Positions 796-58,481 are shown, numbered from the stretch's first letter. The stretch: 64,000 nt of DNA from an uncultured Bacteroidales bacterium (GCA_910578275.1 CAJTPR010000005.1:109030-173029), one strand, 5' to 3'. Program-made: numbers and translations. Notes: a model not told the origin generated them from the letters alone.

Positions 796-2583
796 ATGAA
801 GAATATCCGGAATTTTTGCATCATCGCCCATATCGACCATGGCAAGAGTACCTTGGCCGACAGGCTTTTGGAATATACCGGCACCGTGTCGGCGCGTGAA
901 TTGCAGGCGCAGGTGCTTGACGACATGGACCTGGAACGCGAGCGCGGCATCACCATCAAGAGCCATGCCATCCAGATGAAATACAAGCATGACGGGCAAG
1001 AGTACGTGCTCAACCTCATAGACACGCCGGGACATGTCGATTTCTCGTATGAGGTTTCGCGCTCCATCGCCGCCTGCGAAGGTGCCTTGTTGATCGTGGA
1101 CGCCACGCAAGGCATTCAGGCGCAAACCATTTCCAACCTCTACCTGGCCATGGAGAACGACCTGGCCATCATTCCCGTGCTCAACAAGATGGACCTTGCC
1201 AACGCCATGCCCGAGGAAGTGAAAGACCAGATCGTGGACCTGGTGGGTTGCCGCCGCGAAGACATCATGGCCGCCAGCGGAAAGACCGGACTTGGCGTGC
1301 CCGATCTGCTGCAAGCCATCGTCGAGCGCATTCCCGCTCCGGAGGGCAAGCCCGATGAACCTTTGCAAGCCCTCATCTTCGATTCGGTATTCAATTCCTT
1401 CAGGGGCATCATATCCTATTTCCGTATCGTCAACGGTACCTTGCGTAAGGGCGACAAGGTGAAATTCTTCCATACCGGCAAGGAATACGATGCCGAGGAA
1501 GTGGGCGTGCTCGGCTACAAGCCTATACCGTTGCAGGAAGTGAGCGCGGGAAACGTGGGCTATATCATTTCGGGCATCAAGACCTCGGCGGAGGTGAAGG
1601 TGGGCGATACGATAACCCATGTGGACAATCCTTGCAAGGCGGCCATCGACGGTTTCGAGAACGTGAAGCCCATGGTGTTCGCCGGCGTTTATCCGGTGAG
1701 CCCCGACGACTATGAGGATTTGCGGGCTTCCATCGAGAAACTGCAGCTCAACGACGCTTCGCTTACCTACGAACCCGAGTCTTCGGTGGCGTTGGGTTTC
1801 GGCTTCCGTTGCGGGTTCCTGGGCTTGTTGCACATGGAAATCATCCAGGAGCGCCTGGAACGCGAGTTCAACATGGATGTCATCACCACCGTTCCCAACG
1901 TTTCGTACAAGGTGACCACCACCAAGGGAGAGGAACTGGAAATCCACAATCCTTCGGGCTTGCCCGCGCCCAACTACGTCGACCACATAGACGAGCCCTA
2001 TATCCGCGCCCAGATCATCACCAAGGCGGAATTCGTGGGAGCCATCATGAAGCTTTGCATCGACAAGCGCGGCGTCCTCAAGAACCAGATCTATATCACT
2101 ACCGACCGTACCGAACTCACGTTCGAGATGCCTCTTTCCGAAATCGTGTTCGATTTTTACGACAGGCTCAAGAGCATATCGAAAGGCTATGCTTCGTTCG
2201 ACTATTACCCCTGCGGATACCAGCCTTCCAGGCTCGTGAAACTGGAAATCCTGCTCAACGGCGACACGGTGGACGCTCTTTCCACGCTCATTTACCAGGA
2301 CAACGCCTATGCGTTCGGGCGGAGGATGTGCGAGAAGCTGAAAGATCTTATTCCGCGCCAGCAGTTCGACATTGCCGTGCAGGCGGCGATCGGATCCAAG
2401 ATCATCGCCCGCGAAACCATCAAGGCCGTGCGCAAGGACGTGACGGCCAAATGCTACGGAGGAGACATCTCGCGCAAGCGCAAGTTGCTCGAAAAGCAGA
2501 AAGAAGGCAAGAAACGCATGCGTCAGGTAGGCAACGTGCAAGTGCCCCAGTCGGCGTTTCTGGCCGTGCTCAAACTGGATTAA
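796..2583 (+). CDS. lepA: Elongation factor 4 (LepA), translational GTPase
   Basis: [25 protein letters not shown]..., DTPGHVDF and NKMD GTPase motifs, with a LepA-type C-terminus. The track ORF starts at 418; I trimmed it to the ATG at 796, which gives the canonical N-terminus. Confidence 0.95.
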
Positions 2584-2585
2584 GC

Positions 2586-4649: not shown

Positions 4650-4663
4650 GGGCGGGCTCGGCA

Positions 4664-6331: not shown

Positions 6332-6427
6332 TCCTCGGACAAACTATCCGCAAAGATAGGGATATGGATTAATATTCGTATCTTCACCCGCCCTTTGGGT
6401 ATAGACGTTCAAATTAATGACGAGGAC

Positions 6428-9400
6428 ATGAAAGCACGCTGCCTTTGGATGGCCGTTTTCGCGGCATTTTTCCCGGTATCCGTCCGGGCGCAGACCGGAC
6501 AAGGAATCGCGGTGAACCCGAAATCGGAAACCTTGCTGGAAATGGTTTCCGGCACCGAATACGGGTTGGAATTCCGTAACCGATTGGGCGGAATAGACGA
6601 GGCGGCCTGTTTTTCAGTGCCGCAGGGAGCCTATTCCACGGCCTCCGTGGCCGGGATACCCCGGCAGTTCACCACGTTGTCCGTCCGCGGCTATGCGTTT
6701 ACGAACAAGGCGGGTCGTCCCATGTTGCCGGTGCGCGTGGAAATGATCGAGGTGCCGCAAGGGGCGGTGCCGCGCGTGGTCTATGGCAAGACGGCCTACA
6801 AGGACGTCGACCTGGCAAAAGCGGGTTATCCGCAGCCGTTATATCCCGCCCAGCCGCCCGTAAGCAAGAGTGCCGGGCGGACTCCCGATTTCGTGTACGA
6901 CGTGGAGGCTTATCGCGCCGACGGATTCTTTGCCGACGAGCAAGACGAGGAATTGGTGGAAGTGGAGGTTTTGGGCGAGATGCGGGGCACCCGTATCGCG
7001 AAGATATTGGTGAAGCCGTTCCGATACAATGCGGCCAGGCATATGCTGCGCGTGTATACCACGCTCGACTTTGAAATCGTGTTCGACCATGCCGACTGGC
7101 AGTCCACTTACGAGAAGCAAAGACGCTACGCTTCGCCGGCTTTCGGTTTCTTGCGCGGCGAACTGGCCAACCCCTCCAAGGCCGCGATCCACGAGCGGCC
7201 GCTGCGCTACGTGATCGTCGCCGACCCCATGTTCAAGGATTCCTTGCAGAAGTTCGTGGACTGGAAGACCCGTTTCGGCTTTGAAGTCGTGCAGGCCTAT
7301 ACGGATGAGCCCGAAGTGGGCAAGACGGCATCCTCCATTCGCGCCTACCTCAAGAAACTTTACGATGAAGCCACGTCGGAAGCCCCCGCACCGTCTTACG
7401 TGCTCTTCGTGGGAGACCTGGCGCAGGTTCCTACCCAGACTTACGGGAAAAACGATTGGTCCGGGAGCGGCAAGCATTATTCCGACCTGTATTTGTGCGA
7501 ATATACCGGCGACCATTTTCCCGAAGTGCAGTATGGCCGTATGTCGGCCACCACGGTGGAAGAACTGATGCCGCAGATTGACAAGCTCATCCACATGGAA
7601 AGCCTTTCGCCCGGGCACGCCGCTTTCCTGGACACGGCCGTGGCGATTGCCGGCAGCGATGACGGTCGATTCGACGATACCCACCTCAATCCTACGATCA
7701 ATTACATCTGCTCGTATTATCTCAAGGATACGCTGCAAAGGCATACCTACAAATATCTTGCACCTGAATCGAGTTGGAAGTCCGACGACATCTTGCGCCG
7801 TTTCAACGACGGGCTTTCCTTTATCCTTTATACGGCTCATGGCGATTATGACGGCTGGTCGGATCCGAGCGTGAACGTGTCGGACGTGAACACGATGACC
7901 AACAAGGGCAAGTATCCGTTGGCCATCGGAAATTGCTGCCTTACGGGCAAGTTCGACATGAGCACCTGCTACGGGGAGGCCTTGTTGCGCAAGAAAGACG
8001 CCGGCGCGGTGGGGTATATCGGTGCTTCCGACGTGACTTATTTCGACCAGGACGTCTATTGGGCGATCGGTTATACCGAGCGTATCGCCAAAGGCGTGGT
8101 GCAGACTTACGAGAAGACGGAACTTGGCGCGTTCGATGCCCTCCACCATACGCATGGCGAGGCGTATGAAGACTGGGCGTTGACCGCCTACGAGATCGTC
8201 CATGCGGGCAACATGGCCGTCCAGCGCGCCAATCAGGACCTCGAGGACTATTACTGGGAAGTCTATCACGTTTTCGGAGATCCCTCCTATATGCCTTACT
8301 TGCACGGAGCGGATTATCCGCAAGCCGATTACAGGGATGAATTGATGGTGGGTGAAACGTCCTTTTCCATCCAGACCGTTCCCTACGCCCGGGTGACGAT
8401 AAGCAAGGACGGTGAAATCCTGGGATTCGCCATGGCCGATCCGCATGGTTCCGCCGAAGTGCCCTTGCATGGATTGGATGAGCCGGGAGAATACGACTTG
8501 GTCGTGGCCGCACAGGGCCATCTGCCCTTGCATGCCAAGTTGAACGTGCTGGTGCCGGAGGGAAAATACGTCATCGTGGCCGCTTCCCAGTGGCTGGATG
8601 TCGAAGAAAAGCCGGTGAAAAGCGTCCTTTACGGTGAAACCTACAAGCTTCGCCTTTCCTTGCGCAACGTGGGCGAGGAAACGGTCGGCAAGGTGGAAGC
8701 GGACCTCTTTTCCGATGACCGCTACCTGACGGTGGAAGACGGCCGGTACACGTTGACGACCCCGCTTCAAGCCGGTGAAGAAAAAGTCCTGGATCATTCT
8801 TTCGTCATGAAAGTCGGTACCCATGTCCCGAACAACCATAGGCTTGCCTATGGCGTGCGCCTCGTACTCGACGATACAAGCCAAGAGGCGTCGACCAGGG
8901 AATTCCACGTAAGGGCGGAGGCTCCCGAATTGAAAGTGGTCGCCTTCCGGATAGACGATTCGTCGGGAAGCAAGCCCAACGGCGTCCTTGACAACGGTGA
9001 AACGGTGAAAGGCACGATACAAGTCATGAACATGAGCCGGATCAAGGCTTCCGACGTGAAGGTGAAGGTTTCCTCTTCGTCCGATTTCCTGATCCTGCCC
9101 GACGAGGAAATGGAATTGGGCGACCTGGACGGACAGCAAGGCAAGGAACTTTCCTTTTCGTACGGTGCCCGGCAGGCCGGCGTGTATTATGCTTTCTATT
9201 GGTTGGATTTCACGTTCGAGTCGAAGGGCCGCACGAGCAAGGACAGCGTGCGCTCGTACATCGAGCCGGTGGTGGAGACGTTCGAGAGCGGGGATTTCAC
9301 GTTCGTGGATTGGGACAAGTCTTCGGATTGGGAAATAGACGGGAACAAGTTTCATGGCGGAAAGTTCAGCGCTGCCAGCAAGACCATCGCCGATAACGAA

Positions 9401-45745: not shown

Positions 45746-47227
45746 ATGCAGGCGACGCGTATCAAAGACGACATAAGCGGTTTTTCATACCTTTCCCGAC
45801 AGCTGGATCTGCAGTCGGGCGTGGGGCGTGAACTGCTTTCGCGTGCGCGGTGGTACCGGAAAGGAGAGGAACCGGAACTGTTGGTGGAATTGTCGCGCAT
45901 AGAGCGGATCAAGGACCTTGTGCGTGAAGGACGGACCTTTACGCTCGAGAAATTGAAGCGCAAGTTTTCGCAAGTGTTGGACATACGCGGCACGTTCGCC
46001 CTCCTGCAAAAAGGCGACGTGGACGACGTCCAGTTGTTCGAGGTGAAACGGTTTGCGCTGTTGACGCGCGATTGCGCGGCTTTCGTTTCCGAGTTGACGC
46101 GCGATTGCGCGTTTCATCCCGCTCCGGCGGGTTTTCCGGATTTGGGCGAAGTGGTTTCCATTCTGGATCCGAGGAACGAGAACCTGCCCGCTTTCTACAT
46201 TTACGATGAATATGACGCGCTTCTGGCACGAAAGCGCAAGGAAATACAAGTCCTGTCAAGTTCCGGGACGGACGAGGAGACGATGGGCAAGATCGCTTCC
46301 TTGCAGGAAGAATGCCTGGCCCTGGAACAAGGGGTGCGTCTGGAACTGGCGCGCCGCTTGAGCGCGCACGTGGATGCCTTGCAGGAATCCATGCGCCTTG
46401 TGGCCTATTGGGACCTGTTGACGGCCAAGGCCTACATGGCGGCCGGATACGGTATGGTCATGCCTCGTTTGCAGGAACCGTCCGTTCCGGTGCGGTTGCG
46501 TTACAAGGGTTTGTTCCATCCGATGGTGAAGCGGATCTTGGAAGAAAAGGGACATCGTTACCAACGAATCGACGTCAGCCTCCAAAAAGGCCCCTGCTTG
46601 CTTACGGGTGCCAACATGAGCGGGAAGACGGTGCTGCTCAAGAGCATTGCCCTTTCCCAATGCTTGTTGCAGTCTGGCTTCCTGGTTCCGGCCGAAGAGG
46701 CCGACATGGTATTGTTCGACAGGGTGGAACTCCTCGTGCAGGACGGGCAGGACGAGGAACGGGGGCTTTCCTCGTTCGGTGCCGAGATGCAACGTCTCAA
46801 CACGGTGTTCGGACAGTTGCGGCAAGGCGTGGACACGCTCTTGCTCGTCGATGAGTTGGCGCGTACCACGAATCCCGACGAGGGAAAGGCGATAGTCTGC
46901 GCGGTATTGGAATCCTTGCAGTCGTTGCCTTGCGTGGCGATGGTAAGCACCCATTACGGGCCTGTTCCCAATCCCGTGCGGCGTTTGCGCGTGCGGGGAT
47001 TCCGCCAGGACTGGCTGACGGGACGCATGGCGGAAACGCTTGTCGCGCCGCAAGACATGGAATCCCGTTTCGACATATCCCATATCCAGTCTTGCATGGA
47101 TTATTCGTTGACCGAGGAAGAGTCCGGGGGAAAACCTCCGGCCGAAGCTTTGCGCATAGCCGGTCTTCTGGGTTTCGACGCGGAGGTATTGGCGTTGGCC
47201 GGGAAATATCTCGAAAGGAGAATATAA
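45746..47227 (+). CDS. MutS-family (domain V) ATPase lacking the mismatch-binding N-terminus
   Basis: Walker A LTGANMSGKTVLLKSIAL, SSFGAEMQRL, Walker B LLLVDELARTTNPDEG. The ATG at 45746 was chosen because the track GTG start (45710) lies inside the rplS terminator. It is co-directional with kamDE, 27 nt upstream of kamD. Confidence 0.75.
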   Translation: MQATRIKDDISGFSYLSRQLDLQSGVGRELLSRARWYRKGEEPELLVELSRIERIKDLVREGRTFTLEKLKRKFSQVLDIRGTFALLQKGDVDDVQLFEVKRFALLTRDCAAFVSELTRDCAFHPAPAGFPDLGEVVSILDPRNENLPAFYIYDEYDALLARKRKEIQVLSSSGTDEETMGKIASLQEECLALEQGVRLELARRLSAHVDALQESMRLVAYWDLLTAKAYMAAGYGMVMPRLQEPSVPVRLRYKGLFHPMVKRILEEKGHRYQRIDVSLQKGPCLLTGANMSGKTVLLKSIALSQCLLQSGFLVPAEEADMVLFDRVELLVQDGQDEERGLSSFGAEMQRLNTVFGQLRQGVDTLLLVDELARTTNPDEGKAIVCAVLESLQSLPCVAMVSTHYGPVPNPVRRLRVRGFRQDWLTGRMAETLVAPQDMESRFDISHIQSCMDYSLTEEESGGKPPAEALRIAGLLGFDAEVLALAGKYLERRI

Positions 47228-47254
47228 CCGAAAAAAGGAAAACATAAACATAAG

Positions 47255-48817
47255 ATGGAGCGAACAAAAAGCAAATTAGGCCTTGATTTTGACAAGGTGA
47301 AGCAGGCGCGGACGGCTGCCGGCAACATCGCCGCGCAGGTGCAGCGTTTCGTGGACGGATATACGACCGTCGCCACGGAAAGGACGATTGCCCGCCTGTT
47401 GGGAATAGACGGTGTCACCGCCGACGGGGTGCCTTATCCCAACGTGGTGGTGGATGCCATGAAAGAAGCCGGCCTGCTGGGCGAGGGCGTCATGTTCGTG
47501 GTGGGCAACGCCGTCGTGCAGACAGGCAAGACGCCGCAACAGATCGCCCAGGAAACGGGAGAAGGCGCATTGGACTTGTCGAAGATTGCCGTGGCGGACG
47601 CCGGAAAGCGTCAGGCCGCGCTCAAGCCCTATGTGGACGCTTCGATGGAACGGATACGCGCCCGTCGCGCCCGTCGCCAGGAATATCTCCGTACCATCGG
47701 CGAAGGCCCTAAACCCTACCTGTACGTCATCGTGGCCACTGGCAACATCTACGAGGACGTTACCCAGGCACAGGCTGCCGCAAGGCAAGGGGCGGACATC
47801 ATCGCCGTTATCCGTACCACCGGCCAGAGCTTGTTGGATTACGTGCCTTACGGTGCCACCACCGAGGGATTCGGCGGCACGATGGCCACCCAGGAAAACT
47901 TCCGCATCATGCGCAAGGCCTTGGATGAAGTGGGCGAGGAAGTAGGGCGATATATCCGTCTTTGCAATTATTGTTCGGGGCTTTGCATGCCCGAGATCGC
48001 CGTCATGGGCGCGCTGGAAGGCTTGGACGTCATGCTCAACGATGCCCTTTACGGCATCCTTTTCCGCGACATCAACATGCAGCGCACGTTGGTGGACCAG
48101 TATTTTTCGCGGGTCATCAACGGTTTTGCCGGTGTCATCATCAATACCGGCGAAGACAATTACCTTACCACCGCCGACGCGGTGGCCGAGGCGCATACCG
48201 TGCTGGCTTCCGACTTCATCAACGAGCAACTGGCCTTGTTGGCGGGGCTTCCTCCCGAACAGATGGGGCTGGGGCACGCCTTCGAGATGGATCCCAAGCT
48301 GGAGGACGGCTTCTTGATGGAACTGGCGCAAGCCCAGATGTTGCGCGAGATCTTCCCTGCCGCGCCGCTCAAATACATGCCGCCCACCAAGTTCATGACC
48401 GGCAACATCTTCCGCGGTCATTTGCAGGACGCGCTCTTCAACATGATCGGCATCTGGACGCATCAGGGGTTGCAGTTGTTGGGTATGCCGACGGAGGCCA
48501 TCCATACGCCGTTCATGAGCGACCGTTACCTTTCCATCGAGAACGCCCGATATATCTTCAACAACATGAAGAGCATAGGCGAGGAAATGGAATTCAAGGA
48601 AGGCGGCATCGTCCGCAGGCGTGCGGCCGAAGTGCTTGACAAGGCTGTTTCCTTGTTGGAGGAGATGGAAAAGGAAGGGCTTTTCTCCGCACTCGAAAAA
48701 GGCATCTTCGCCGACATCAAACGCCCCAAGAATGGCGGAAAAGGCTTGCAGGGCGTGGCGGAAAAGAGCGCCCGTTATGAAAACCCGTTTATTGACTTAA
48801 TGAAGAAAGGAGCTTGA
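47255..48817 (+). CDS. kamD: Lysine 5,6-aminomutase alpha subunit
   Basis: 520 aa. The N-terminus MERTKSKLGLDFDKVKQARTAAGNIAAQVQRFVDGYTTVATERTIARLLGIDG and the overall length fit KamD. Followed by the B12-binding beta subunit. Confidence 0.85.
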   Translation: MERTKSKLGLDFDKVKQARTAAGNIAAQVQRFVDGYTTVATERTIARLLGIDGVTADGVPYPNVVVDAMKEAGLLGEGVMFVVGNAVVQTGKTPQQIAQETGEGALDLSKIAVADAGKRQAALKPYVDASMERIRARRARRQEYLRTIGEGPKPYLYVIVATGNIYEDVTQAQAAARQGADIIAVIRTTGQSLLDYVPYGATTEGFGGTMATQENFRIMRKALDEVGEEVGRYIRLCNYCSGLCMPEIAVMGALEGLDVMLNDALYGILFRDINMQRTLVDQYFSRVINGFAGVIINTGEDNYLTTADAVAEAHTVLASDFINEQLALLAGLPPEQMGLGHAFEMDPKLEDGFLMELAQAQMLREIFPAAPLKYMPPTKFMTGNIFRGHLQDALFNMIGIWTHQGLQLLGMPTEAIHTPFMSDRYLSIENARYIFNNMKSIGEEMEFKEGGIVRRRAAEVLDKAVSLLEEMEKEGLFSALEKGIFADIKRPKNGGKGLQGVAEKSARYENPFIDLMKKGA

Positions 48818-48818
48818 C

Positions 48819-49607
48819 ATGAGCGGCGGATTATATTCGACATCGCACGAAGAAATAGACAAGACGTACGATCCCAAGAAGATCAAGCCGTACGGCGACA
48901 CGATGAACGACGGCAAGACGCAACTGAGTTTCACCTTGCCCGTGCCTTGCGGCGAGGAAGCCGTGGAAGCGGCCAAGCAGTTGTTGCGCAAGATGGGATT
49001 CGATAACCCGCAAATCGTGTATTATCACGAACTGACGGAAGGTTTCACGTTCTTCAACGCCTACGGCGCTTGCACGCACACGGTCGACTACACGGACATT
49101 CACGTGCCCAAGGTTGAATCGTCGGTGATGGGCATGGAAGAGACCGACGCCTACATCAAGGAACATATCGGTCGCAAGATCGTGGTGGTGGGTGCCAGCA
49201 CGGGAACGGACGCGCACACGGTGGGCATCGACGCGATCATGAACATGAAGGGTTTCGCCGGGCACTACGGCCTGGAACGCTACGAGATGATCGACGCCTA
49301 TAACCTGGGAAGCCAGGTTCCCAACGAGGAGCTTATATCCAAGGCTCTCGAACTGGAGGCCGATGCGATATTGGTGTCGCAGACCGTCACGCAAAAGGAC
49401 GTCCATATCCAGAACATGACACAGATGATCGAGATGCTGGAAGCCGAAGGTCTGCGCGACAAGTTGATCGTTTGTTGCGGCGGCCCGCGGATTACCTACG
49501 AATTGGGCAAGGAACTCGGTTTCGACGCCGGTTTCGGCATGAATTCGTATGCCGACGACGTGGCTTCCTACCTGGCGCAGGAGATTGCCGTGCGCAAGGG
49601 AAAATAG
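48819..49607 (+). CDS. kamE: Lysine 5,6-aminomutase beta subunit (B12-binding)
   Basis: 262 aa. Base-off/His-on cobalamin motif DAHTVG in VVGASTGTDAHTVGIDAIMN, with a Rossmann-like B12-binding domain. Confidence 0.85.
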   Translation: MSGGLYSTSHEEIDKTYDPKKIKPYGDTMNDGKTQLSFTLPVPCGEEAVEAAKQLLRKMGFDNPQIVYYHELTEGFTFFNAYGACTHTVDYTDIHVPKVESSVMGMEETDAYIKEHIGRKIVVVGASTGTDAHTVGIDAIMNMKGFAGHYGLERYEMIDAYNLGSQVPNEELISKALELEADAILVSQTVTQKDVHIQNMTQMIEMLEAEGLRDKLIVCCGGPRITYELGKELGFDAGFGMNSYADDVASYLAQEIAVRKGK

Positions 49608-49639
49608 GTCGCCTGAAAGCCGACGACTGCGAACAGCAA

Positions 49640-49681
49640 GGCGTGGCGAACCGGCCGGAAAGGCTTCGTCGCGCCTTTTTT
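49640..49681 (+). terminator. Rho-independent terminator after kamE
   Basis: 11-bp stem GGCGTGGCGAA/TTCGTCGCGCC (two G-T pairs), 14-nt loop, then T6. Confidence 0.7.
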
Positions 49682-49811
49682 GATTCTTTCAAGGATTATT
49701 TGATATTGCGTGTTGAAAATCGCTGCCAGACGAACGGTTTCCGGGTCGACGCATCTCCTCTTGCGGATACCTGGCCGTTCGTCCGCCGGTTTTCGGAATG
49801 GAATTCGGGAA

Positions 49812-50049
49812 ATTTAAAATAGAAATTGATGGAGATTACTGTCCCTTTTTCTGTTAGTAAATCCTTTGAAACATAGATTGTATACCCTGTTGATTGGGTT
49901 GGACTACCACCTGACTTTTTAATAATCACATCTCCGGTTCCCAATGTCTTTTCTTTAAAAGATTTTTCGCTAACATAGCGCAAGGGAATATTGCCGAACT
50001 CTCCAATGGATATGGGCAATGTCTGCGCCCTTAACATAATACACTGCAT
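49812..50049 (-). pseudogene. Fragment of a restriction-enzyme specificity (HsdS-type) target-recognition domain
   Basis: LPISIGEFGNIPLRYVSEKSFKEKTLGTGDVIIKKSGGSPTQSTGYTIYV resembles an S-subunit TRD (GD[IV][IL]..KSGG...G). The ORF then reads through the composition boundary into GC-rich native DNA (49696-49811), so it is truncated at the junction. Confidence 0.5.
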
Positions 50050-50307
50050 TAGGCTCTCTTCGCTTGGAATTTCATTACCCCAATCTCCAGCAGTAAATAT
50101 CAGCCGTTTGAGCTGCTATTATACTATTTTCCAATGTTTATGCGATAATTATGGAAGGCTATGGTTTGTATGTAAAGAAAATCTACTATTAAATCAGCGT
50201 ATAGGATTATTGTATTTTGTTATAATATATTTGGAGTACTTTTGCAATTTCCTCAACTGTAATATCGTATAATAATAGAAAAGCGAATACTATTCTAAAG
50301 CAATTAA

Positions 50308-51078
50308 ATGTCTCGCATACTATACAAATATTTGGATATAGTTGGTGCAAAGTGTATGATTGGAAACCAGAATCTCCAATTCACTAATGCGTCTCAACTG
50401 AATGACCCTTTCGATTGTCATCCAAAATTAATTGACTACTCAAATGTGCCGGATAATAGACTTCACGGATGGATACCTGAGGAATGGTGGATTGAGAAAG
50501 AAGAAAACGATGCTTTCAATTTGCGCAATGATACATGGTTATGCAGTTTGTCAAAAGTTAATAATTCATTACTGATGTGGAGCCATTATTGTTATAACCA
50601 TAAAGGTATTTGTGTAGGACTTGACATGGGAAAATTGATGGAGTCAGTTCCGCCAATGTTTGGTACAATATATCATGAACCGCTTGTTTTTGATGTTCAG
50701 TATCAGGATATAATAGAGCGTCCTAACGCATATCATAGCAAAAATGATATATTCAGTTATCAATGGCGGACAAAAGCAAAGGAATGGGAATATGAGCAGG
50801 AGGTGAGATTAGTCGTGCCAAGTCCCTACGCTGCGTATGCCGCTTTTACCCCACAACAAGCTGAACAGGATAAGAAAATATGGGATTGGCGTGAGATACG
50901 CCATTATATGCCACTGAAAGGCGAATGCTTTGAGTCTATCTATTTTGGCGTCAATATAGAACAAACTGAAAAAGAAAAAATAATCCGATACGTTCGCAAG
51001 AAACTAAATCCACAACTCAAGTTATACCAAATGGAAATAGATGACAATGCTTTTAGATTGCAACCAGTAATTATATGA
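50308..51078 (+). CDS. DUF2971 family protein
   Basis: 256 aa. LYKYLDIVGAKCMIGNQNLQFTNASQLNDPFDC is the characteristic DUF2971 N-terminal signature. Function unknown. Confidence 0.65.
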   Translation: MSRILYKYLDIVGAKCMIGNQNLQFTNASQLNDPFDCHPKLIDYSNVPDNRLHGWIPEEWWIEKEENDAFNLRNDTWLCSLSKVNNSLLMWSHYCYNHKGICVGLDMGKLMESVPPMFGTIYHEPLVFDVQYQDIIERPNAYHSKNDIFSYQWRTKAKEWEYEQEVRLVVPSPYAAYAAFTPQQAEQDKKIWDWREIRHYMPLKGECFESIYFGVNIEQTEKEKIIRYVRKKLNPQLKLYQMEIDDNAFRLQPVII

Positions 51079-51287
51079 ACGATTAAGTGTCGGTAAATTC
51101 TGATTTATCTGGCGAAAGATTTTATTTTGTTTTTCAATCACAACAAAAATATCGTTCAAAAAATAATGTTACCCTTGTAGTTAGGAAGAGTTATTTGGCT
51201 TAAATACGCCGTTAAATATTATTTAAACTGTTATGTTAATCCGTCCACAATCTAAAATAAACACCTGACGGAAATATAAATTTGAGC

Positions 51288-51335
51288 AAAGCGTAGCGAA
51301 TGGACTGGAACAGCGTTCGTTACGCTTTTCTTTTT
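51288..51335 (+). terminator. Strong hairpin plus T-tract inside the island
   Basis: 13-bp stem AAAGCGTAGCGAA/TTCGTTACGCTTT (one G-T pair), 15-nt loop, then TCTTTTT. There is no ORF of 60 aa or more between 51079 and 51520. Confidence 0.45.
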
Positions 51336-51520
51336 GGTTGGTATAATGCCACTCCAAGCCGTGCGAAAGCCACTAGGCGCAAGAGTTCAGTTACTACCTC
51401 ATTACCGTGCGGATACAGTAGATTTCTTGTCAAGTGCTTGTTTTTCTGCGGTTTGCATAATTTCACATAGCTTCGGTAACTCACTGTAATATAGTTTTGT
51501 AACCCCCAAAGGAGTGAGTT

Positions 51521-51877
51521 ATAAGAAGTACATTCAAAGTATTGTTCTACGTGAAGAAAGGCAGCGAGAAGCGGGGCGGCAACTTGCCTCTAATGTGCCG
51601 TATCACGGTGGACGGTGAAATCAAACAGTTCAGTTGCAAGATGGATATTCCCTTGTGGCTGTGGGACGTGAAGAACAACCAGGCTTCTGGTAAGAGTGCC
51701 GAAGCGCAGAAAATCAATCGTGCAGTGGATAAAATCCGTGTGGAGGTAACCGCCGCTATCAGGAACTGATGCAGACAGATATGTTACCGCCGCAAAGTTG
51801 AAAGATGCATATCTCGGTATAGGTGTCAAGCAGGAAACCCTACTGAAACTCTTCGAGCAGCATAATGCCGAGTTTTG
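51521..51877 (+). pseudogene. Remnant of a Bacteroides CTn/NBU-type tyrosine integrase (N-terminal arm-binding region only)
   Basis: (I)RSTFKVLFYVKKGSEKRGGNLPLMCRITVDGEIKQFSCKMDIPLWLWDVKNNQASGKS...KIRVEV is the typical N-terminus. ATA replaces the ATG. The homology continues in two other frames (NRRYQELMQTD, then YVTAAKLKDAYLGIGVKQETLLKLFEQHNAEF*), so there are at least two frameshifts. The catalytic domain is absent. Confidence 0.75.
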
Positions 51878-52097
51878 AGGGAGTACAGGATAAGACGGAC
51901 TATCCGTATATCGGACAAATGCAGTATTAAGGTTTACAACCTCGAAACGATAACCGCCCTCGCTTTCCGCATCGGCACATACGGAGCGGAACGGGTACGC
52001 CAAGCCTTGTTGGAAAGGATAACACACGGGCGGAAAGAGAAAACGACCGTTTTCGTTTCACTGTTCACGGAGGGCAAACCCAACAGCCGTTGGCAAG

Positions 52098-52164
52098 CAT
52101 GATGATATATCAACAAGCAAACCTATCATCATGTAATCATATCAACAAACAAACCTGTTGATAT
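52098..52164. repeat. Two iteron-like direct repeats, each embedded in its own inverted repeat
   Basis: ATATCAACAAGCAAACCT (52107-52124) lies between CATGATGAT and ATCATCATG. ATATCAACAAACAAACCT (52139-52156) is followed by GTTGATAT, the complement of its own 5' end. Confidence 0.6.
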
Positions 52165-52212
52165 GGTGATACGGAGTTTATTCCTCTTTTAGAGGAAAGC
52201 GGAGCAATCATT

Positions 52213-52376
52213 CCCGTTTACAAAGGCGAAGTACGTATGGGGCTTGATGTCGGCTTCAAGGTCAGGAGGCGGCTATGCCGTTTCCCGACAAATCTTCCTC
52301 TCGCTTCGTTGCGAGCGTATTTGTCGGAAAAACCTTGCTTCCGACCGCCCCATGCAAGAGAAGCCTTTGTAAACGG
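52213..52376. other. Nested imperfect hairpin of about 165 nt (candidate structured RNA or recombination site)
   Basis: Hand-paired helices: 52214-27/52363-76 (14 bp), 52235-43/52347-55 (9 bp), 52249-53/52341-45 (5 bp), 52257-62/52332-37 (6 bp), 52281-83/52328-30 (3 bp), 52285-93/52319-27 (9 bp) and 52300-04/52311-15 (5 bp, hexaloop). A 4-bp side hairpin lies at 52270-80. Confidence 0.6.
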
Positions 52377-52799
52377 AAACGACCGCCCCGCCCCCTCCGA
52401 CCGAAAGGAAAAAATAATATAAAGGGAGTTTGGATTGGGCAAGCACAGGTAATGTAGTCGCAATTCAGAATGTCTAGCACACTCGCCAATAATGAATATA
52501 GCAGGTTCTCTTAGTCAAGTCGGTACAATTAAAGTATTGATGATAAGGATTATTATGTCACTATTTCCGTATATGTTCACTCAAACATGACAAATGTTTT
52601 GTATAACACAAAACCTTTCGGGTTACATCTGAATGTATGTCCGTCTGAACACAGCAAGATGTCTTTTCAGCCGCTCAAAAAGATTTGAGCAGCTTGAAAA
52701 GTCTTGCCGTCTATGCGGACAATCTCACCTACAAAGTCGGGAGATTAAATTTTCAATAAAAAGATGGTTAACTATAACTTGTAAGCTAAATAAAAGTAG

Positions 52800-52807
52800 T
52801 ACATTTG
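52800..52807 (+). promoter_or_regulatory. -7 promoter box (TACATTTG) for the R-M-S gene
   Basis: Perfect TAnnTTTG, 42 nt before the ATG at 52849. Confidence 0.4.
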
Positions 52808-52848
52808 CATATTGGGGTATTATATATAATTTTGATTATAAAAGACAT

Positions 52849-55764
52849 ATGGATACAATGCCATTAGAAGCTGATACAAGGAATCTTATTGATACCGCTT
52901 TAACTAACTTAGGATGGAAGTTAAACGGAAAAGATAAGAATGTTTTCTTTGAACAGCCAAAAACAGAAGCAGAACGCAAATCTCTTGGAGGCAAACGTCC
53001 TGATTATGTGTTGTACTCAAATGAGAGTGATAGACCACTAATTGTTATTGAGGCCAAAAAGAAAGGCACTCGCCTTGATGTAGCAATGGAGCAAGGTATT
53101 AGTTATGCTCGTGCAATTAATGCTCCACTTGTATTTGCTACAGATGGAGTATTCTGTAAAGCATATCATACAGAAGCCAATAGAGCTCCTATTTTAAATG
53201 GGGAAGAAATAGACGAGTTTATCAGAGAAACTCTTGCGTTGCGGTATTTGACAACTTATGAGGTAAATACCGTAAGTCCCAAGGTTCAATATGATAGAAA
53301 AGAGTTAATCCGTATATTTGATGAAGCAAATAATATGTTACGAGGGGAAGGATTGCGTGCTGGAATTGAACGTTTTGGTGAGTTTGCAAATATACTATTC
53401 CTAAAACTTATTAGTGAAAGCGAACAAATCAAAAGAGAAAGTGGTATTAAAACGCTTTTTGATGCAACAGCATGTAGTTGGGATAGCATTAAAAATATTC
53501 CTTTTACAACTCGCATTGACTATATAAATAAAACAGTTTATGAAAAACTAAATTCATTATATAATACTGATATATTTACTCCCTTACAGATTCGAGATGC
53601 AAGTATCTTGAAAGAAATAATGGATAAGCTTGACCCACTAACGCTTACTGATGTGGATAGTGATGTAAAGGGAGATGCTTTTGAGTATTTTTTGAAAGCT
53701 TCAACTGCAACTAAAAATGACTTAGGAGAATATTTCACTCCACGCCACATTGTAAAAACAATGGTGCGTTTGGTTAATCCCCAAATTGGGGAAGCCATAT
53801 ATGACCCATTTTGTGGCACAGGTGGATTCTTAATAGAGAGTTTTCGCTATATATACAATAATATGGCGAGAACCGAAGCCAATATAAAGATGTTGCGGGA
53901 GCATACGGTTTATGGCAATGAAATTACTAATACTGCACGTATCACCAAAATGAATATGATTTTGGCGGGTGATGGGCATAGCAATATCAATATGCGTGAT
54001 AGTTTGGCAAATCCTATAGACGGGAAAGCTACATATAGAGATAATGATGGAAGTGAGTATCATTACGGATATGATATAGTCCTTGCAAATATGCCTTATT
54101 CTCAAAAAACTAAACATGGAGCATTGTATGACTTACCAAGTACAAATGGTGATAGTATTTGTGTACAACATTGTATGAAAGCAATAAATAGCACATCTCC
54201 TAATGGTAGAATGGCTTTGGTCGTTTCTGAAGGCTTTCTTTTTAGAAAGGATTTAACGAGAACACGTGAATACCTCTTGGAAAATTGCCAATTACAAAGT
54301 ATTATTTCATTGCCACAGGGCGTGTTCTTGCCATATACAGGTGTTAAAACGGATATTATATATGCAACCAAAGTAAATCAAAAGATAAAGAAGTCAGAGA
54401 AGAAAAAAGAATTTTGGTACTTTGATGTCAAAAGCGACGGATATACTTTAGATAACCATCGCCGTAAATTAGATACACATAGTGATTTGGCTAAATATGA
54501 GGAGTTTCGTAAGTTAGATGAGGACCAATCTACAGAAATGACGAATGTGGGATTTGAAATAATTCCACTCGATAAGGTGCACAAAAATGCCAATATTTTG
54601 GTGGGTAGTCGTTATCGAAAAGCCAAGATGATTGATTCAAAGTACGATGTGGTTAGAATTGAAGATGTCGCTACACTAAATAATGGATATGCTTTTCCTT
54701 TATCATTACAAGGGCAAGAGGGGACAATCCCATTCTATAAAGTAAGTGATATGAACTCTGAAGGTAACGAAGTTGAAATGAAAAAAAGTAACAATTATGT
54801 ATCAGCTGAAATTGCCAAGGCGAAAAAGTGGGGGATAGCGCCGATAGGCACGGTTATATTTCCAAAAATTGGAGCTGCTATTGCCACTAATAAAAAAAGA
54901 GTTCTAAGTCTACCCGCAATATTCGACAACAATATTATGGGTATTATATGTGGTGATAAAGTATTGCCACGCTTTATGCTATATATGTTGGAACATATAG
55001 ATATTTCTAATTGGGCGTCATTAGCTAATCCTCCATCAATTTCTCGGCAAGCAGTTCTTGAACAAGAAATTCCGTTGCCTTCTATAGAAGTTCAACAGCA
55101 AATAGTTGACGAACTTGACGGATATAGAAAAATTATTTTCGGTGCTCAATCTATTGTATCAAGCTATGAACCGCATTTGCCAAAGTTTAAGACAGGCACT
55201 ATTGTAAAGCTTTCGGATATTTGTGAGATTAATCGTTTTTCTGTAAATCCAGAACAAGAATACGGAGAAGAAACGTTTACTTATATTGATATTTCTTCTG
55301 TTACCAACGGTACGGGCAAAGTTAATAAATCACAAAAAATAAAAGGAAAAGATGCTCCCTGTAGAGCAAGGCGAGGAATGAGCAAGGGAGATATATTAAT
55401 GTCAACCGTTCGTCCCAATCTAAAGGCTTTCAGTTATGTTGATTTTGACACTAAAGGCTTTGTTGCCTCGACCGGCTTTGCTGTTTTGAGCCCCCAAAAT
55501 GTGAATGGCAAGTATCTACTTTATGCATTATTGGATGATTTTGTTGGGAACCAACTAAGCGATGCAATGAGTAAAGCAATGTATCCAAGCGTAAACAAAT
55601 CTGATTTAGAAAATTTGGATATTATTTGTCCTTCTGTTGAAGAACAGAATGGGGCGGTTATCCAAATTGAAAGAGAATTATCATTCATAAAGCCAGCAGA
55701 AGAAATTGTTTCTATTTTCACAAAAAAAATAGAGCAAAAAATTAACGAAGTTTGGGGTGAATAA
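52849..55764 (+). CDS. Single-chain restriction-modification-specificity enzyme (Type IIB/IIG-like, AloI/HaeIV architecture)
   Basis: 971 aa from MDTMPLEADTRNL. N-terminal PD-(D/E)xK nuclease (RPDYVLY...LIVIEAKKK; D at 53002, E-A-K at 53050-53058). Gamma-class N6-adenine MTase (DPFCGTGGFL, LANMPYS). Two HsdS-type TRDs separated by IPLPSIEVQQQIVDELD, the second containing GDILMSTVRPNLKAF. Confidence 0.8.
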   Translation: MDTMPLEADTRNLIDTALTNLGWKLNGKDKNVFFEQPKTEAERKSLGGKRPDYVLYSNESDRPLIVIEAKKKGTRLDVAMEQGISYARAINAPLVFATDGVFCKAYHTEANRAPILNGEEIDEFIRETLALRYLTTYEVNTVSPKVQYDRKELIRIFDEANNMLRGEGLRAGIERFGEFANILFLKLISESEQIKRESGIKTLFDATACSWDSIKNIPFTTRIDYINKTVYEKLNSLYNTDIFTPLQIRDASILKEIMDKLDPLTLTDVDSDVKGDAFEYFLKASTATKNDLGEYFTPRHIVKTMVRLVNPQIGEAIYDPFCGTGGFLIESFRYIYNNMARTEANIKMLREHTVYGNEITNTARITKMNMILAGDGHSNINMRDSLANPIDGKATYRDNDGSEYHYGYDIVLANMPYSQKTKHGALYDLPSTNGDSICVQHCMKAINSTSPNGRMALVVSEGFLFRKDLTRTREYLLENCQLQSIISLPQGVFLPYTGVKTDIIYATKVNQKIKKSEKKKEFWYFDVKSDGYTLDNHRRKLDTHSDLAKYEEFRKLDEDQSTEMTNVGFEIIPLDKVHKNANILVGSRYRKAKMIDSKYDVVRIEDVATLNNGYAFPLSLQGQEGTIPFYKVSDMNSEGNEVEMKKSNNYVSAEIAKAKKWGIAPIGTVIFPKIGAAIATNKKRVLSLPAIFDNNIMGIICGDKVLPRFMLYMLEHIDISNWASLANPPSISRQAVLEQEIPLPSIEVQQQIVDELDGYRKIIFGAQSIVSSYEPHLPKFKTGTIVKLSDICEINRFSVNPEQEYGEETFTYIDISSVTNGTGKVNKSQKIKGKDAPCRARRGMSKGDILMSTVRPNLKAFSYVDFDTKGFVASTGFAVLSPQNVNGKYLLYALLDDFVGNQLSDAMSKAMYPSVNKSDLENLDIICPSVEEQNGAVIQIERELSFIKPAEEIVSIFTKKIEQKINEVWGE

Positions 55765-55766
55765 TT

Positions 55767-56057
55767 ATGGTAGAAGTAATTGACTACACAGAAGTTCCAT
55801 ATTTGCAGGAAATATTGAGTTATCTTCCAATCAATCCTGATGATGAAGAAGATATAAATAGCTATGTCAATAATGTAACTAATTTAATTGCCGTAAATTA
55901 CAAATATGAGCAGTATCAATTTGCCTATTTTGGTGTTCATCTGCTCTATATGACTTATATTTATTGTACAGCATGGCAAATCAGTCAAATTATCCCTGAT
56001 AGATATAAAGATGAATTGTTTTTGCACGTCCATATAGTGGCAGAGAGAAAGACTTGA
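55767..56057 (+). CDS. Hypothetical protein; probably the N-terminal part of a frameshifted gene continuing at 56054
   Basis: Starts 2 nt after the R-M-S stop. Adding one T to the T5 run at 56019-56023 joins it in frame to the next ORF (…DELFFARPYSGREKDLKIEDANS…). Confidence 0.45.
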   Translation: MVEVIDYTEVPYLQEILSYLPINPDDEEDINSYVNNVTNLIAVNYKYEQYQFAYFGVHLLYMTYIYCTAWQISQIIPDRYKDELFLHVHIVAERKT

Positions 56058-56548
56058 AGATAGAAGATGCTAATTCAATATTTGCATATAGTTTATTACC
56101 GGAAAAAGATATTGCAAAACTTTTTAAAATTATATGTTTGGATAAATCCCAAATTGCAAATGTTAGTGATTTAGTAGATGCACGTAACGATATGGCACAT
56201 GCATCGGGGAAATTCAATATTCTTACAGAAGATGGTTATGATGCAAAAGGCAGTAGTATATTGTCTTCAATGAAAAATATTCATAAATGTATGAATGAAT
56301 CAATACGAAAATGGTATTCTGAAATCTTAGTTAGTTTCTGTGCTGGAGAATTTTCAGATTATAAAAAAGCGCGAGATTTATTGACAGAATATATGATTCA
56401 GAGTTTTAAATTATCGGTAAATGAATTGTTAGTTTGTAATGAAATGAGTGTAAGTGGTTTAATAACTCAACATCGCGGATATCAAACCAAACTTAAGCAT
56501 TTTAAGAAAACTGTCGCAGATTATTGCCAAGAGATGGGATATATATAG
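56054..56548 (+). CDS. Rx4H-motif (HEPN-like, Abi-like) protein
   Basis: VDARNDMAHASG, with R at 56183-56185 and H at 56198-56200, fits the HEPN Rx4-6H signature in a predicted all-alpha context. TTG start in the track. The frame is open upstream to 56015. Confidence 0.5.
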   Translation: MKIEDANSIFAYSLLPEKDIAKLFKIICLDKSQIANVSDLVDARNDMAHASGKFNILTEDGYDAKGSSILSSMKNIHKCMNESIRKWYSEILVSFCAGEFSDYKKARDLLTEYMIQSFKLSVNELLVCNEMSVSGLITQHRGYQTKLKHFKKTVADYCQEMGYI

Positions 56549-56550
56549 TT

Positions 56551-57575
56551 ATGGGTAAAAAAACTTCAAATACATAATAGTACGGCTGAATTCCTTATAT
56601 TTCAATTAGAAAGTAAAGAAGAAGGAATAGAGGTCTTATATCAAGACGAAACACTTTGGCTTACACAAGATACCATAGCTACACTATTTAATAAAGGGCG
56701 TTCAACAATTGCAGAACATTTGCAAAACATTTTTCAAAGCCTAGAATTACAAGAAGATTCAGTCTGTCGGAAATTCCGACGAACTGCTGCTGACGGAAAA
56801 AGTTATGCTACTAAATATTATAATTTAGATGCAGTCATTTCTGTCGGTTATAGAGCCAATTCTGTACGTGCTACCCAATTCCGGCAATGGTGTACCTATG
56901 TTCTCCGACAATTTGCCATACGCGGTTATGTGATTGACAAGAAACGAATGGAAAACGGAACATTCATCAATGAGGATTATTTCGAACATTTACTTGCGGA
57001 AATAAGAGAGATTCGATTGAGTGAACGCCGCTTTTATCAAAAGTTGACGGATATTTCGAGAACAAGTATTGACTATAATCGAGATGCCCCAACAACCAGA
57101 ATGTTTTTCAAGAAGGTGCAAAATAAAATGCACTATGCTGTTCACGGGCATACTACGGCAGAACTGATTGTAGAACGAGCCAATGCAGAAAAAGAGCATA
57201 TGGGACTTACTTCTTGGGAGAAAGCCCCTAACGGCAAGATTGTAAAAACAGATGTCAATAGCTAAGAACTATTTAAAAGAAACAGAATTGGAGTCAATGG
57301 GAAGAATAGTCAATGCTTTTCTTGATTTAGCGGAAGACAGAGCAACGCGTCATATTCCTATGACTATGGAAGATTGGGCTGTTCGTATCGACAAGTTCTT
57401 GGATGGTGATGACAGACCCATACTGGTTGACGCCGGCACAATATCTGCAGAACAAGCTAAGTTACATGCAGAGACCGAGTTTGAGAAATATCGCATTATC
57501 CAAGATAAGTTGTTTCAATCAGATTTTGATCATTGGGGGACAAACAATTTGTTTGGTTTTGATAAGGAAGAATAA
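56551..57575 (+). pseudogene. RhuM-family protein gene, disrupted by two frameshifts
   Basis: Strong RhuM similarity (ETLWLTQDTIATLFNKGRSTIAEHLQNIF, TAADGKSYATKYYNLDAVISVGYRANSVRATQFRQW, ...SIAKNYLKETELESMGRIVNAFLDLAEDRA). The ATG at 56551 is out of frame by one A in the A7 run at 56557-56563. A second shift lies near 57252. Confidence 0.75.
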
Positions 57576-57576
57576 A

Positions 57577-57619
57577 TGCAAAGGTTATGACTGTATTAAA
57601 AAATAATCATACCTTTGCA
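57577..57619 (+). terminator. Hairpin immediately after the rhuM remnant (no T-tract)
   Basis: 13-bp stem TGCAAAGGT(T)ATGA/TCATACCTTTGCA with one bulge and a 16-nt A/T loop. Confidence 0.3.
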
Positions 57620-57781
57620 ATCAAGAGTTATTTGACAGGATAGCACCGCAAACCACTGCAAATAGCACGGCGTCCAACTCGTTACCGTTGTTTCTCAAAT
57701 AATTCATTAAACATTTAATCCACAAATGGTTGCGTCAGGCTGTTGAAAACCTAAAATAATTCGTAAATTCACAGCCGATTT

Positions 57782-57803
57782 GCCGACAGGCGGGTCGGCT
57801 TTT
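57782..57803 (+). terminator. Terminator-like hairpin just upstream of the CoA-transferase beta gene
   Basis: GCCGAC AGGCGG GTCGGC followed by TTTT, 22 nt before the ATG at 57825. Confidence 0.4.
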
Positions 57804-57824
57804 GCATGCTAAAAAATCTTCAAA

Positions 57825-58481
57825 ATGGATAAGAATCAGATTCGTGAGATCATCGCCAGGCGTGTGGCCAAGGAATTGAAGAACGGCGACGTGGTGAACC
57901 TCGGCATCGGCTTGCCCACCATGGTGCCCAACTACCTCGCCCCGGGCGTAAAGGTCGTCTTGCAGTCCGAAAACGGTCTGCTCGGCATGGGGCCTACGCC
58001 CCAGGAAGGCCAGGAAGATCTCGAATACATCAATGCCGGCGGAGGCTTCACCTCGCCGGTGAAAGGCTCTTGCACGTTCAGCAGTGCCACCTCGTTCGGC
58101 ATTATCCGTGGCGGACATGTGGACGCCACCGTGCTGGGCGCCATGCAGGTGGACGAGGAAGGCGACTTGGCCAACTGGATGATTCCCGGAAAGATGACTC
58201 CCGGAATGGGCGGCGCGATGGACTTGCTTACCGGAGCCAAATTGGTGATCCTGGCCATGGAACACACGGCCAAAGGCAAGCCGAAGATTTTGAAAAAGTG
58301 CACGCTTCCCCTCACCGCCAAAGGCCGCGTGAATCTTATCGTCACCGAAATGGGCGTGATGAAAGTTACGCCCGAGGGCATAGAATTGGTTGAAATCAAT
58401 CCCGAATTCAAGCCCGAAGACGTACAAGCCCTCACCGAGGCGAAGTTGATCATTTCCCCCGACCTGAAGCCCATGTCATAA
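57825..58481 (+). CDS. atoA: CoA-transferase subunit B (3-oxoacid/acetoacetate:butyrate CoA-transferase beta)
   Basis: 218 aa MDKNQIREIIARRVAKELKNGDVVNLGIGLPTMV...SENGLLGMGP...MGGAMDL, the canonical family I beta subunit. No alpha-subunit gene is adjacent. Confidence 0.85.
   Translation: MDKNQIREIIARRVAKELKNGDVVNLGIGLPTMVPNYLAPGVKVVLQSENGLLGMGPTPQEGQEDLEYINAGGGFTSPVKGSCTFSSATSFGIIRGGHVDATVLGAMQVDEEGDLANWMIPGKMTPGMGGAMDLLTGAKLVILAMEHTAKGKPKILKKCTLPLTAKGRVNLIVTEMGVMKVTPEGIELVEINPEFKPEDVQALTEAKLIISPDLKPMS

Follow-up and report, generated by a model that had tools for sequence, protein, structure and literature searches.

A defence island between kamE and a CoA-transferase gene of an uncultured Bacteroidales bacterium: a probable stack of decayed small mobilisable elements

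Introduction

Hotspots for defence islands between conserved core genes have been described mainly in enterobacteria, Pseudomonas and Vibrio. We describe here an AT-rich defence island found in an uncultured Bacteroidales bacterium, inserted between kamE, which encodes the beta subunit of lysine 5,6-aminomutase, and the gene for the B subunit of a 3-oxoacid CoA-transferase. The island lies in a 64,000-nucleotide (nt) stretch of DNA (GCA_910578275.1 CAJTPR010000005.1:109030-173029), referred to as the window, and all positions are counted from the first letter of that stretch. The locus resembles the known hotspots in that varied occupants of low G+C content (toxin-antitoxin pairs, a Fic protein, ATPases and restriction-modification (R-M) genes) are found at one position, but it differs from them in its host genus and in its flanking genes, kamE and the CoA-transferase gene, which are metabolic.

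The mobile elements most comparable to the units of this island are the mobilisable transposons, or integrative mobilisable elements (IMEs), of Bacteroides. NBU1, NBU2, Tn4555 and Tn5520, which were compared with the family of the window by description only, are like it in their small size (2-9 kb) and in having one terminal tyrosine integrase with an arm-binding domain. They are also alike in the presence of a relaxase in some members, with a region resembling an origin of transfer (oriT) upstream of it, in the location of the cargo between these parts, and in integration at a short AT-rich core; AT-rich targets are known for Tn5520 (PMC5704250). In the window, however, the integrase is reduced to a stub and the relaxase gene is missing. 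Moreover, the relaxase of the window's relatives is of the Mob_Pre (MobV) type, unlike the MobP relaxase of NBU1/2 and Tn4555 (PMC5704250). We found no published description of a 134-nt right arm with a CTAAAATAA core such as the one that closes this island.

The island as a whole is comparable to the cis-mobilisable elements (CIMEs) and the tandem accretion of the ICESt1/ICESt3 model (PMC5704250), being decayed, deprived of its own integration and transfer genes, limited by attachment (att)-type bounds and arranged as a tandem stack. It differs from that model in that its outermost left att is eroded to 2 nt and in that its target is an intergenic AT-rich core and not the 3' end of a gene.

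Results and discussion

The insertion and its junctions

The host genome was laid out as 15 contigs (1.86 Mb, 54.8% G+C), and conspecific contigs were gathered by look-up of the identical KamE protein. One of these contigs (L133, Logan SRR14944432) has flanks that are 99.4-99.6% identical to those of the window and is devoid of the island. The alignment of the window with this empty site showed that positions 49688-57752 (8,065 bp) are an insertion, because window positions 47000-49687 meet positions 57751-58735 in L133, with a 2-nt overlap. The junction of L133 reads ...CGCCTTTTTTGATT[CT]AAAATAATTCGTAAATTC... (in a shorter form, ...TTTTTTGATT[CT]AAAATAATTCG...). The left junction is located at 49687/49688, with a 2-nt 'CT' ambiguity, and the right junction with native DNA at 57750-57753, inside the interval of 57.62-57.78 kb proposed by a first-pass annotation made from the sequence alone. 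The same annotation had placed the end of native DNA near 49811. It is found at 49687, and the next 124 nt (49688-49811), although richer in G+C, are part of the insert. The annotation had also noted that the island has no flanking direct repeats; this is correct for the outer ends, which have nothing in common beyond 'CT', but a direct repeat of about 100 nt inside the island (51158-51262 and 57598-57759) had been missed.

The comparison of windowed G+C and k-mer content, which the first-pass annotation had recommended, showed that the island is the most extreme region of the genome. The G+C content of the exact insert is 37.2%, compared with 54.8% for the genome (z = -6.95), which is below that of all 880 sliding 8-kb windows, and its tetranucleotide distance from the genome (z = +8.3) is at the top of the same 880 windows. 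The G+C content fell from 0.55-0.60 in the flanks to 0.30-0.40 across about 49.8-57.7 kb, with intermediate values of 0.45-0.49 at 51.4-52.6 kb. Since different segments of the island also match different genomes, the earlier description of the island as a mosaic is upheld. Only a handful of other low-G+C regions are present in the host genome, and none has sequence in common with the island. Such compositionally deviant regions were seen at 258000-282000 and 125000-127000 of contig C1, at 194000-201000 of contig C3 and at 50000-52000 of contig C4 of the host genome (G000), the deviation at 260-268 kb of C1 being almost that of the kamE island.

A scan of 48.5-59 kb and of three related loci against Rfam gave zero matches, and no tRNA gene able to serve as an att site was found in the window. 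A scan of metagenomes for exact matches to the 3' end of kamE returned zero contigs.

Polymorphism of the island and reuse of the site

Most conspecific contigs carry the island, with an identity of 99.97-100%, and it is present in 19 of the 19 conspecific contigs that encode the identical CoA-transferase B protein. It is thus close to universal within one very tight lineage, but a strain that has diverged by about 0.5% lacks it; since this conspecific strain exists, the island is not fixed in the species. The view that the element is old and fixed, put forward in the first-pass annotation, is not supported in view of this strain, of a composition that has not drifted towards that of the host, of the near identity of the conspecific copies and of the 92-94% identity of the right part of the island to a locus of Paraprevotella clara.

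We then compared the locus in 18 other genomes of the genus, in 15 of which kamE and the CoA-transferase B gene are located on one contig. The distance between the two genes was 0-200 nt in nine of these 15 congeners (G013, G011, G001, G015, G018, G008, G009, G005 and G003). The insertion of an AT-rich block between the two genes, as initially proposed, is thus borne out both by this adjacency and by the empty site of L133, and the case in which kamE and atoA are never adjacent in relatives, which would speak against an insertion, does not apply. The other six congeners contain other low-G+C cargo of 1.0-2.1 kb in the gap, in all six directly upstream of a conserved AAAATAATTYGTAAATTCAC leader. 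The names given to this cargo come solely from a reading of translated open reading frames (ORFs). A nucleotidyltransferase/HEPN-type pair and an FGE-sulfatase lipoprotein are present in G016 (L014 4813-6669), and an FGE-sulfatase lipoprotein and a helix-turn-helix (HTH)/toxin-like pair in G007 (L015 6223-8319), while the cargo found within L046-L049 consists of an HTH/toxin-like pair similar to that of G007 in G012, a Schlafen/AlbA-like ATPase in G017, a Fic protein in G002 and an AAA ATPase in G004. Seven occupancy states are found in the gap across 16 species of the genus. Because six congeners hold different cargo there, the kamE/CoA-transferase intergenic spot is a hotspot, that is, a landing site reused in the genus. 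The locus shows the two features by which a defence island or hotspot is recognised, clustered defence-type genes and variability among relatives.

The integrase-plus-arm family

The right end of the island is a full arm on the plus strand (57611-57759), which comprises a TACCTTTG box at 57611-57618, a 134-nt arm at 57625-57758 and a core, CTAAAATAA, at 57751-57759; it was matched by a hidden Markov model (HMM) of the arm with E = 3.6e-31. Conservation with the congeners resumes from position 57751 onward. Among 400 genomes sampled from the same order, 14 (in 12 of the 237 genera) contain this arm, and the sequences on either side of it are unrelated. We aligned 19 copies from more than 13 genomes (that of the window and 18 others; L111-L130 and L052). 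Their length could be measured end to end for 17 copies and was exactly 134 nt for 16 of them and 135 nt for the other one, despite an identity of only 70-85% between copies. All arms terminate at CTAAAATA, and the flanks diverge beyond this point.

In six genomes (G326, G158, G103, G251, G153 and G383), an integrase left end and an arm are collinear, on the same strand and 2.3-8.6 kb apart. The homology among these integrase elements starts exactly at AAAATAAACAC. The intact relatives encode an integrase of 410 amino acids (aa) with Arm-DNA-bind_5, SAM_5 and Phage_integrase domains. A Mob_Pre relaxase is encoded by the G326 element, and a homologous protein of 455 aa is found at the same position in G158. 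G326 carries a Dam-type methylase with a putative nuclease as its cargo, and in G103 the cargo comprises a HaeII R-M system, a second C5 methylase, an HATPase protein and Vsr. This family of small integrase-plus-arm elements mostly ferries R-M systems between families of this order; together with the reuse of the kamE/CoA-transferase site across the genus, it is the result of this analysis most worth noting.

An integrase-bearing element of this family has left its left end in the window at 51254-51520 (plus strand), where the homology with G326, G158, G251 and contig C9 of the host genome begins at AAAATAAACAC and where a terminator-like hairpin is located at 51312-51326. The following 51521-51875 (plus strand) correspond to codons 1-120 of a tyrosine integrase (Pfam Arm-DNA-bind_5). 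As the first-pass annotation had recognised, this stub is dead: an ATA replaces its ATG and two frame changes are present, near 51748 and 51775, so that the intact 410-aa integrases align with it by tblastn in three frame segments. A deletion of about 1,055 bp, measured against G158, joins int codon 120 to codon 55 of the next small gene. The last 76 codons of this gene and a hairpin-rich region with an inverted repeat are retained at 51872-52433 (plus strand), as found by tblastn and by blastn against G326 and G158. In intact relatives, the hairpin-rich region kept at 52100-52433 lies upstream of the Mob_Pre relaxase gene, and it may represent an oriT-like relic. No relaxase gene was found in the window, where tblastn with the Mob proteins of G326 and G158 gave zero matches. 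A 73-nt fragment located further on (52636-52708, plus strand) is 84-92% identical to the ParA-like/mobilisation intergenic region of three unrelated genomes (G030, G381 and G387) and is probably a relic of the oriT region of another type of element.

Tandem structure of the island

The arm is present a second time, in a shortened form, at 51158-51262 (plus strand); this copy has a TAnnTTTG-like box, and its core CTAAAATAA is at 51252-51260. An HMM built without the window's own arm matched it at 51198-51259 (E = 5.5e-5), and the same copy was found by the repeat search. At 51254 the short arm passes without a gap into the left end of the integrase-bearing unit, and the two together form an attP-like junction. 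Because a shortened arm directly precedes the dead integrase, the island can be read as a tandem stack of decayed elements comprising at least two units. The left unit (to 51262) would contain an hsdS fragment, an intact DUF2971 gene and the short arm. The right unit (51254-57759) would contain the integrase stub, the deletion, the hairpin-rich region, the 73-nt fragment, a nuclease-methylase-specificity (R-M-S) gene, an HEPN-like gene, a RhuM gene and the full arm. As far as the sequence can tell, the right unit has the att-type bounds of a CIME, an arm-core-left-end junction on one side and an arm-core on the other.

The empty site reads GATTCTAAAATAATTCG and has 10 nt in common with the arm-core-left-end junction (...AAAATCTAAAATAAACAC...); these two sequences look as would be expected of an attB/attP pair. 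With respect to the features of an IME, an empty site exists and the core CTAAAATAA is carried by the right end and by the internal junction, while the outer left end retains only 'CT', and the island contains a stub in place of a functional site-specific recombinase. The host genome contains another integrase of this family on contig C9 (79681-80453; L020 5682-6452), which is 78% identical to the stub in DNA. Its N-terminal 167 aa are intact and the gene runs off the end of the contig. The att-like sites of the island might be recognised in trans by this integrase. The island had been called immobilised, which is correct for its own recombinase, dead in cis, but leaves aside the att-like sites kept by the right unit and the integrase on C9.

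The R-M-S enzyme and the Paraprevotella clara relative

A locus of P. clara YIT 11840, a species of a different family, shows 92-94% DNA identity to the right unit over window positions 52119-54579 and 55067-57760, the match extending to the very end of the arm with its core. The integrase end is wholly missing from the P. clara copy, which means that decay at the left took place independently in the two copies. A relaxase gene is present in neither copy, and their common ancestor therefore probably relied on oriT only.

The R-M-S gene (52849-55764, plus strand) is intact and encodes a single chain of 971 aa with the Pfam domains HSDR_N, N6_Mtase and two Methylase_S. Its frame is open, and the motifs PD...EAK, DPFCGTGGF and NMPY are invariant in 12 homologues (13 sequences aligned), so that a nuclease, an N6-adenine methylase, two target recognition domains (TRDs) and the catalytic motifs of a single-chain R-M-S enzyme are all present. 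The protein family is widespread and comprises 58 related loci, mostly from Clostridia, with 50-70% identity. Between the window and P. clara, the protein identity is about 99% for the nuclease and methylase parts and about 92% for TRD2, whereas TRD1 (nt 54580-55066; L052 11731-12237) was swapped and is only about 20% identical. Since TRD1 was replaced, the two enzymes should recognise different half-sites.

BsaXI is an R-M enzyme that uses a separate S subunit. Among the solved structures, RM.BsaXI (8w0p) is the closest enzyme of the type IIB/IIG kind, with a weak partial match (E = 7.9e-11) over query residues 145-523 only, and the strongest PDB matches of the R-M-S protein are type I methyltransferase subunits. 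The predicted organisation of the island enzyme is that of the type IIB/IIG single-chain enzymes (AloI/CjeI type), in which the PD-(D/E)xK nuclease is N-terminal, the N6-adenine methylase is central and two TRDs of the hsdS type are present, and it appears to be type IIB/IIG-like. In the conspecific contigs L132, L136 and L138, a 69-nt tandem duplication (23 aa) was observed in the methylase part, at window 53986-54021; in the numbering of the gene caller, the duplicated form has 1066 aa and that of the window 1043 aa.

Origin of the island

We consider it likely that the island is a stack of decayed small mobilisable elements acquired horizontally by site-specific recombination catalysed by tyrosine integrases. 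The entry would have taken place at the short AT-rich core TCTAAAATAA, which lies after the terminator of kamE and before the CoA-transferase B leader. The elements that entered would have been small IMEs of the family described above, which begin with AAAATAAACAC and an integrase that has an arm-binding domain and end on the right with the 134-nt conserved arm that closes in the core; some family members have a MobV-type relaxase, and the cargo is usually an R-M system. At least two units would have been stacked, each newcomer using the core regenerated by its predecessor, and the integration of one unit into the attR of a resident unit would yield an attP-like internal junction. Deletions and frameshifts would later have removed or killed the recombination genes, and the window copy may never have carried a relaxase. 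The R-M-S enzyme and the DUF2971 protein, whose genes are still intact, presumably restrict phage or foreign DNA. The insertion, its junctions, its polymorphism, the build of the element family and the state of each gene are directly visible in the sequences, whereas we infer the order of these events, the stacking in situ and the defence activity. The structure agrees with a scheme of three steps in the literature, in which an element integrates, decays to a CIME and is then joined by a newcomer (PMC5704250). A single donor for the whole island was rejected, as different segments match different genomes of the same order.

Several observations weigh against this interpretation. The outer left junction is not a canonical attL: it contains the 'CT' of the core only, followed by an arm-like segment and no integrase end. 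This leftmost part of the insert (49688-49826, plus strand, G+C 0.52) is not in the empty site and is unique in the genome. The arm HMM matched it at 49696-49755 and a core-like TAAAATA is found at 49815-49821, which is suggestive of a third, strongly diverged arm copy in these 139 nt, but the statistics of this match are weak, with E = 0.024 for the window and 0.71 for the whole genome. The P. clara copy is also devoid of integrase and relaxase, and part of the decay may have predated the arrival in this host. No intermediate state, with the left unit only, was seen among the approximately 20 conspecific contigs read. Finally, the activity of the R-M-S enzyme and the integration at the core are both deduced from sequence. 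As for the ancestry of the left unit, the identical DUF2971 protein was seen only in the same island context, so that no fuller form of this unit came to light.

In an alternative explanation, without stacking in situ, the whole 8-kb composite would have been built, and would mostly have decayed, in another host, and would then have arrived once, through a resident integrase of the family acting in trans or by homologous recombination with a donor strain. The near-complete identity of the island-bearing conspecific contigs (99.97-100%) with no intermediates seen, the aberrant left junction, the loss of integrase and relaxase already in the P. clara relative and the second family integrase on C9 all agree with such a single arrival, and the transfer of whole composites cannot be excluded according to a review of these elements (PMC5704250). 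However, the window keeps an integrase stub and a left end that are missing in P. clara, and so does not derive from that truncated form. If a composite circle had integrated, the left junction should also be an attL in which the core is complete and the integrase side of the element is present, which was not observed. We regard a single arrival as unlikely. An AT-rich block that is ancestral and native, the 'empty' genomes being deletions, would explain the presence of the island in at least 19 of the 20 conspecific contigs read. Against this stand an empty site that is scar-free, with an intact core matching the congener site, the nine congeners with adjacent genes and the six with unrelated cargo, the most deviant composition of the genome and the 92-94% identity of the right unit to DNA from another family, and we give almost no credence to this explanation.

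The nature of the arm itself was also considered. The 134-nt arm could be a small host RNA gene used as an integration target, as tRNA genes are, rather than the end of an element; the TAnnTTTG box found 7-12 nt upstream in most of the 19 copies, a 3' hairpin with one covarying pair (UA in seven sequences, AU in five) and the invariant length are compatible with this. However, the conspecific empty site has no arm, the arms are always downstream of the cargo and collinear with the integrase, contigs break at the arm end, and the consensus fold is weak (-9 kcal/mol), with zero Rfam matches, which makes a host RNA gene very improbable. A structured RNA of any kind has a low probability, a covarying pair being seen in only one hairpin. 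A coding function of the arm was rejected, as start codons are lacking in one frame, stops soon interrupt the two others and no third-position bias of the substitutions is visible by eye. An integron-like cassette array was likewise rejected, because the integrase of the family has an Arm-DNA-bind_5 domain and the arm forms only one weak hairpin.

Returning to the stack of decayed elements, the arm as the end of such an element may be transcribed outward: the promoter-like TAnnTTTG box, a -7 box of the Bacteroidetes type, is exact in 12 of the 19 copies, and in the island it faces the CoA-transferase gene. A bolder and rather improbable proposal is that the arm is a reusable module for docking and read-out, combining core regeneration, an outward promoter into the host gene and a small RNA that depends on the state of the element, the right unit being perhaps movable by means of the C9 integrase. 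If so, the regenerated core would let further units of the family stack, building a defence island by accretion. In the integrated state, the outward TAnnTTTG promoter would transcribe across the core into the CoA-transferase B gene. After excision, or in a tandem array, transcription from it would instead run into the terminator of the left end that follows and produce a small RNA.

The island is a clear but ordinary case of a stack of decayed mobilisable elements in a defence hotspot. It illustrates how bacterial defence islands build up, and junctions at the base-pair level, an empty site and a relative of the donor type are now available for the defence island of a gut-type anaerobe.

Other genes of the island

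The presence of defence-type genes in the island, suggested by the first-pass annotation, agrees with the matches to PADLOC models, which were obtained for the R-M-S enzyme, PDC-S31, PDC-S05 and Specificity_I. Only the R-M-S gene and the DUF2971 gene are intact; the hsdS, HEPN-like and RhuM genes are pseudogenes.

The hsdS remnant is a TRD fragment of a type I enzyme (49831-50031, minus strand) within an ORF at 49696-50049. Residues 7-73 of this ORF match positions 33-101 of the 405 positions of the PADLOC Specificity_I profile (E = 1.7e-10). Its identification as an hsdS-like TRD was therefore right, but the ORF reads into inserted DNA and not into native DNA as had been thought. The hypothesis that this stub serves as a silent TRD-shuffling cassette for the R-M-S gene was rejected, as no protein similarity was found at E <= 10. 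A perfect 14-nt inverted repeat has one copy at the end of the hsdS stub (49821-49834) and the other where TRD1 and TRD2 of the R-M-S gene meet (55031-55044); it is probably due to chance, since at least one such repeat was found in 16.5% of shuffles.

The DUF2971 gene (50308-51078, plus strand) encodes 256 aa and matches Pfam DUF2971 (E = 2.7e-10) and PADLOC PDC-S31 (E = 3.8e-35), which makes it a candidate single-gene defence factor. The HEPN-like gene (55761-56548, plus strand) has a frameshift near 56012, and its intact 262-aa P. clara orthologue aligns with it in two frames at 95-98% identity; its match to Pfam HEPN_RiboL-PSP is weak and under the cut-off. The RhuM-family pseudogene (56524-57575, plus strand) has lost its start codon and has a frameshift near 57255. 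Both halves match Pfam Virulence_RhuM, PADLOC assigns it to PDC-S05, and the P. clara RhuM gene, which is intact (about 320 aa), aligns with it in three frames. Both RhuM and DUF2971 seem to be accessories to R-M operons. A type I operon with the order hsdR-hsdM-RhuM-hsdS-DUF2971 was observed in another genome (G142:C35; L051, reverse complement 744-8726), where the DUF2971 gene, 75% identical to that of the window, begins right at the hsdS stop (7946/7947).

The lysine-to-butyrate pathway

The first-pass annotation had also raised the possibility that the island changed the expression of the butyrogenic lysine pathway. A large effect of the insertion on this pathway is not expected, because a terminator-like hairpin precedes the insertion, the CoA-transferase gene has kept its leader intact and the partner subunit is encoded elsewhere. 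The hairpin between kamE and the insertion site is already present in the empty-site strain. The insertion point is 73 nt ahead of the CoA-transferase start codon, and the leader with its hairpin at 57782-57799 is untouched. The genes kamA, a kdd-like dehydrogenase gene, kce and the gene of the CoA-transferase alpha subunit form a minus-strand cluster on contig C8 of the host genome (42785-49372; L021 4785-11372). The arrangement in which kamD and kamE are accompanied by the B subunit gene only is also found in congeners, and the island therefore did not remove the alpha gene. The practical message for the butyrate pathway is reassuring rather than dramatic.

On the left of the island, a MutS-like ATPase gene, kamD (47255-48817) and kamE (48819-49607, plus strand; Pfam OAM_dimer and B12-binding, 81-87% nucleotide identity in congeners) are followed by native intergenic DNA (49608-49687, plus strand), which is collinear in L133 and contains the terminator-like hairpin at 49657-49680 and a T run. 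On the right, native DNA at 57760-58481 (plus strand) comprises the atoA-proximal leader and the CoA-transferase B gene itself (57825-58481; TIGR02428 above the cut-off), which is followed by a radical-SAM gene and a short-chain dehydrogenase/reductase (SDR) gene.

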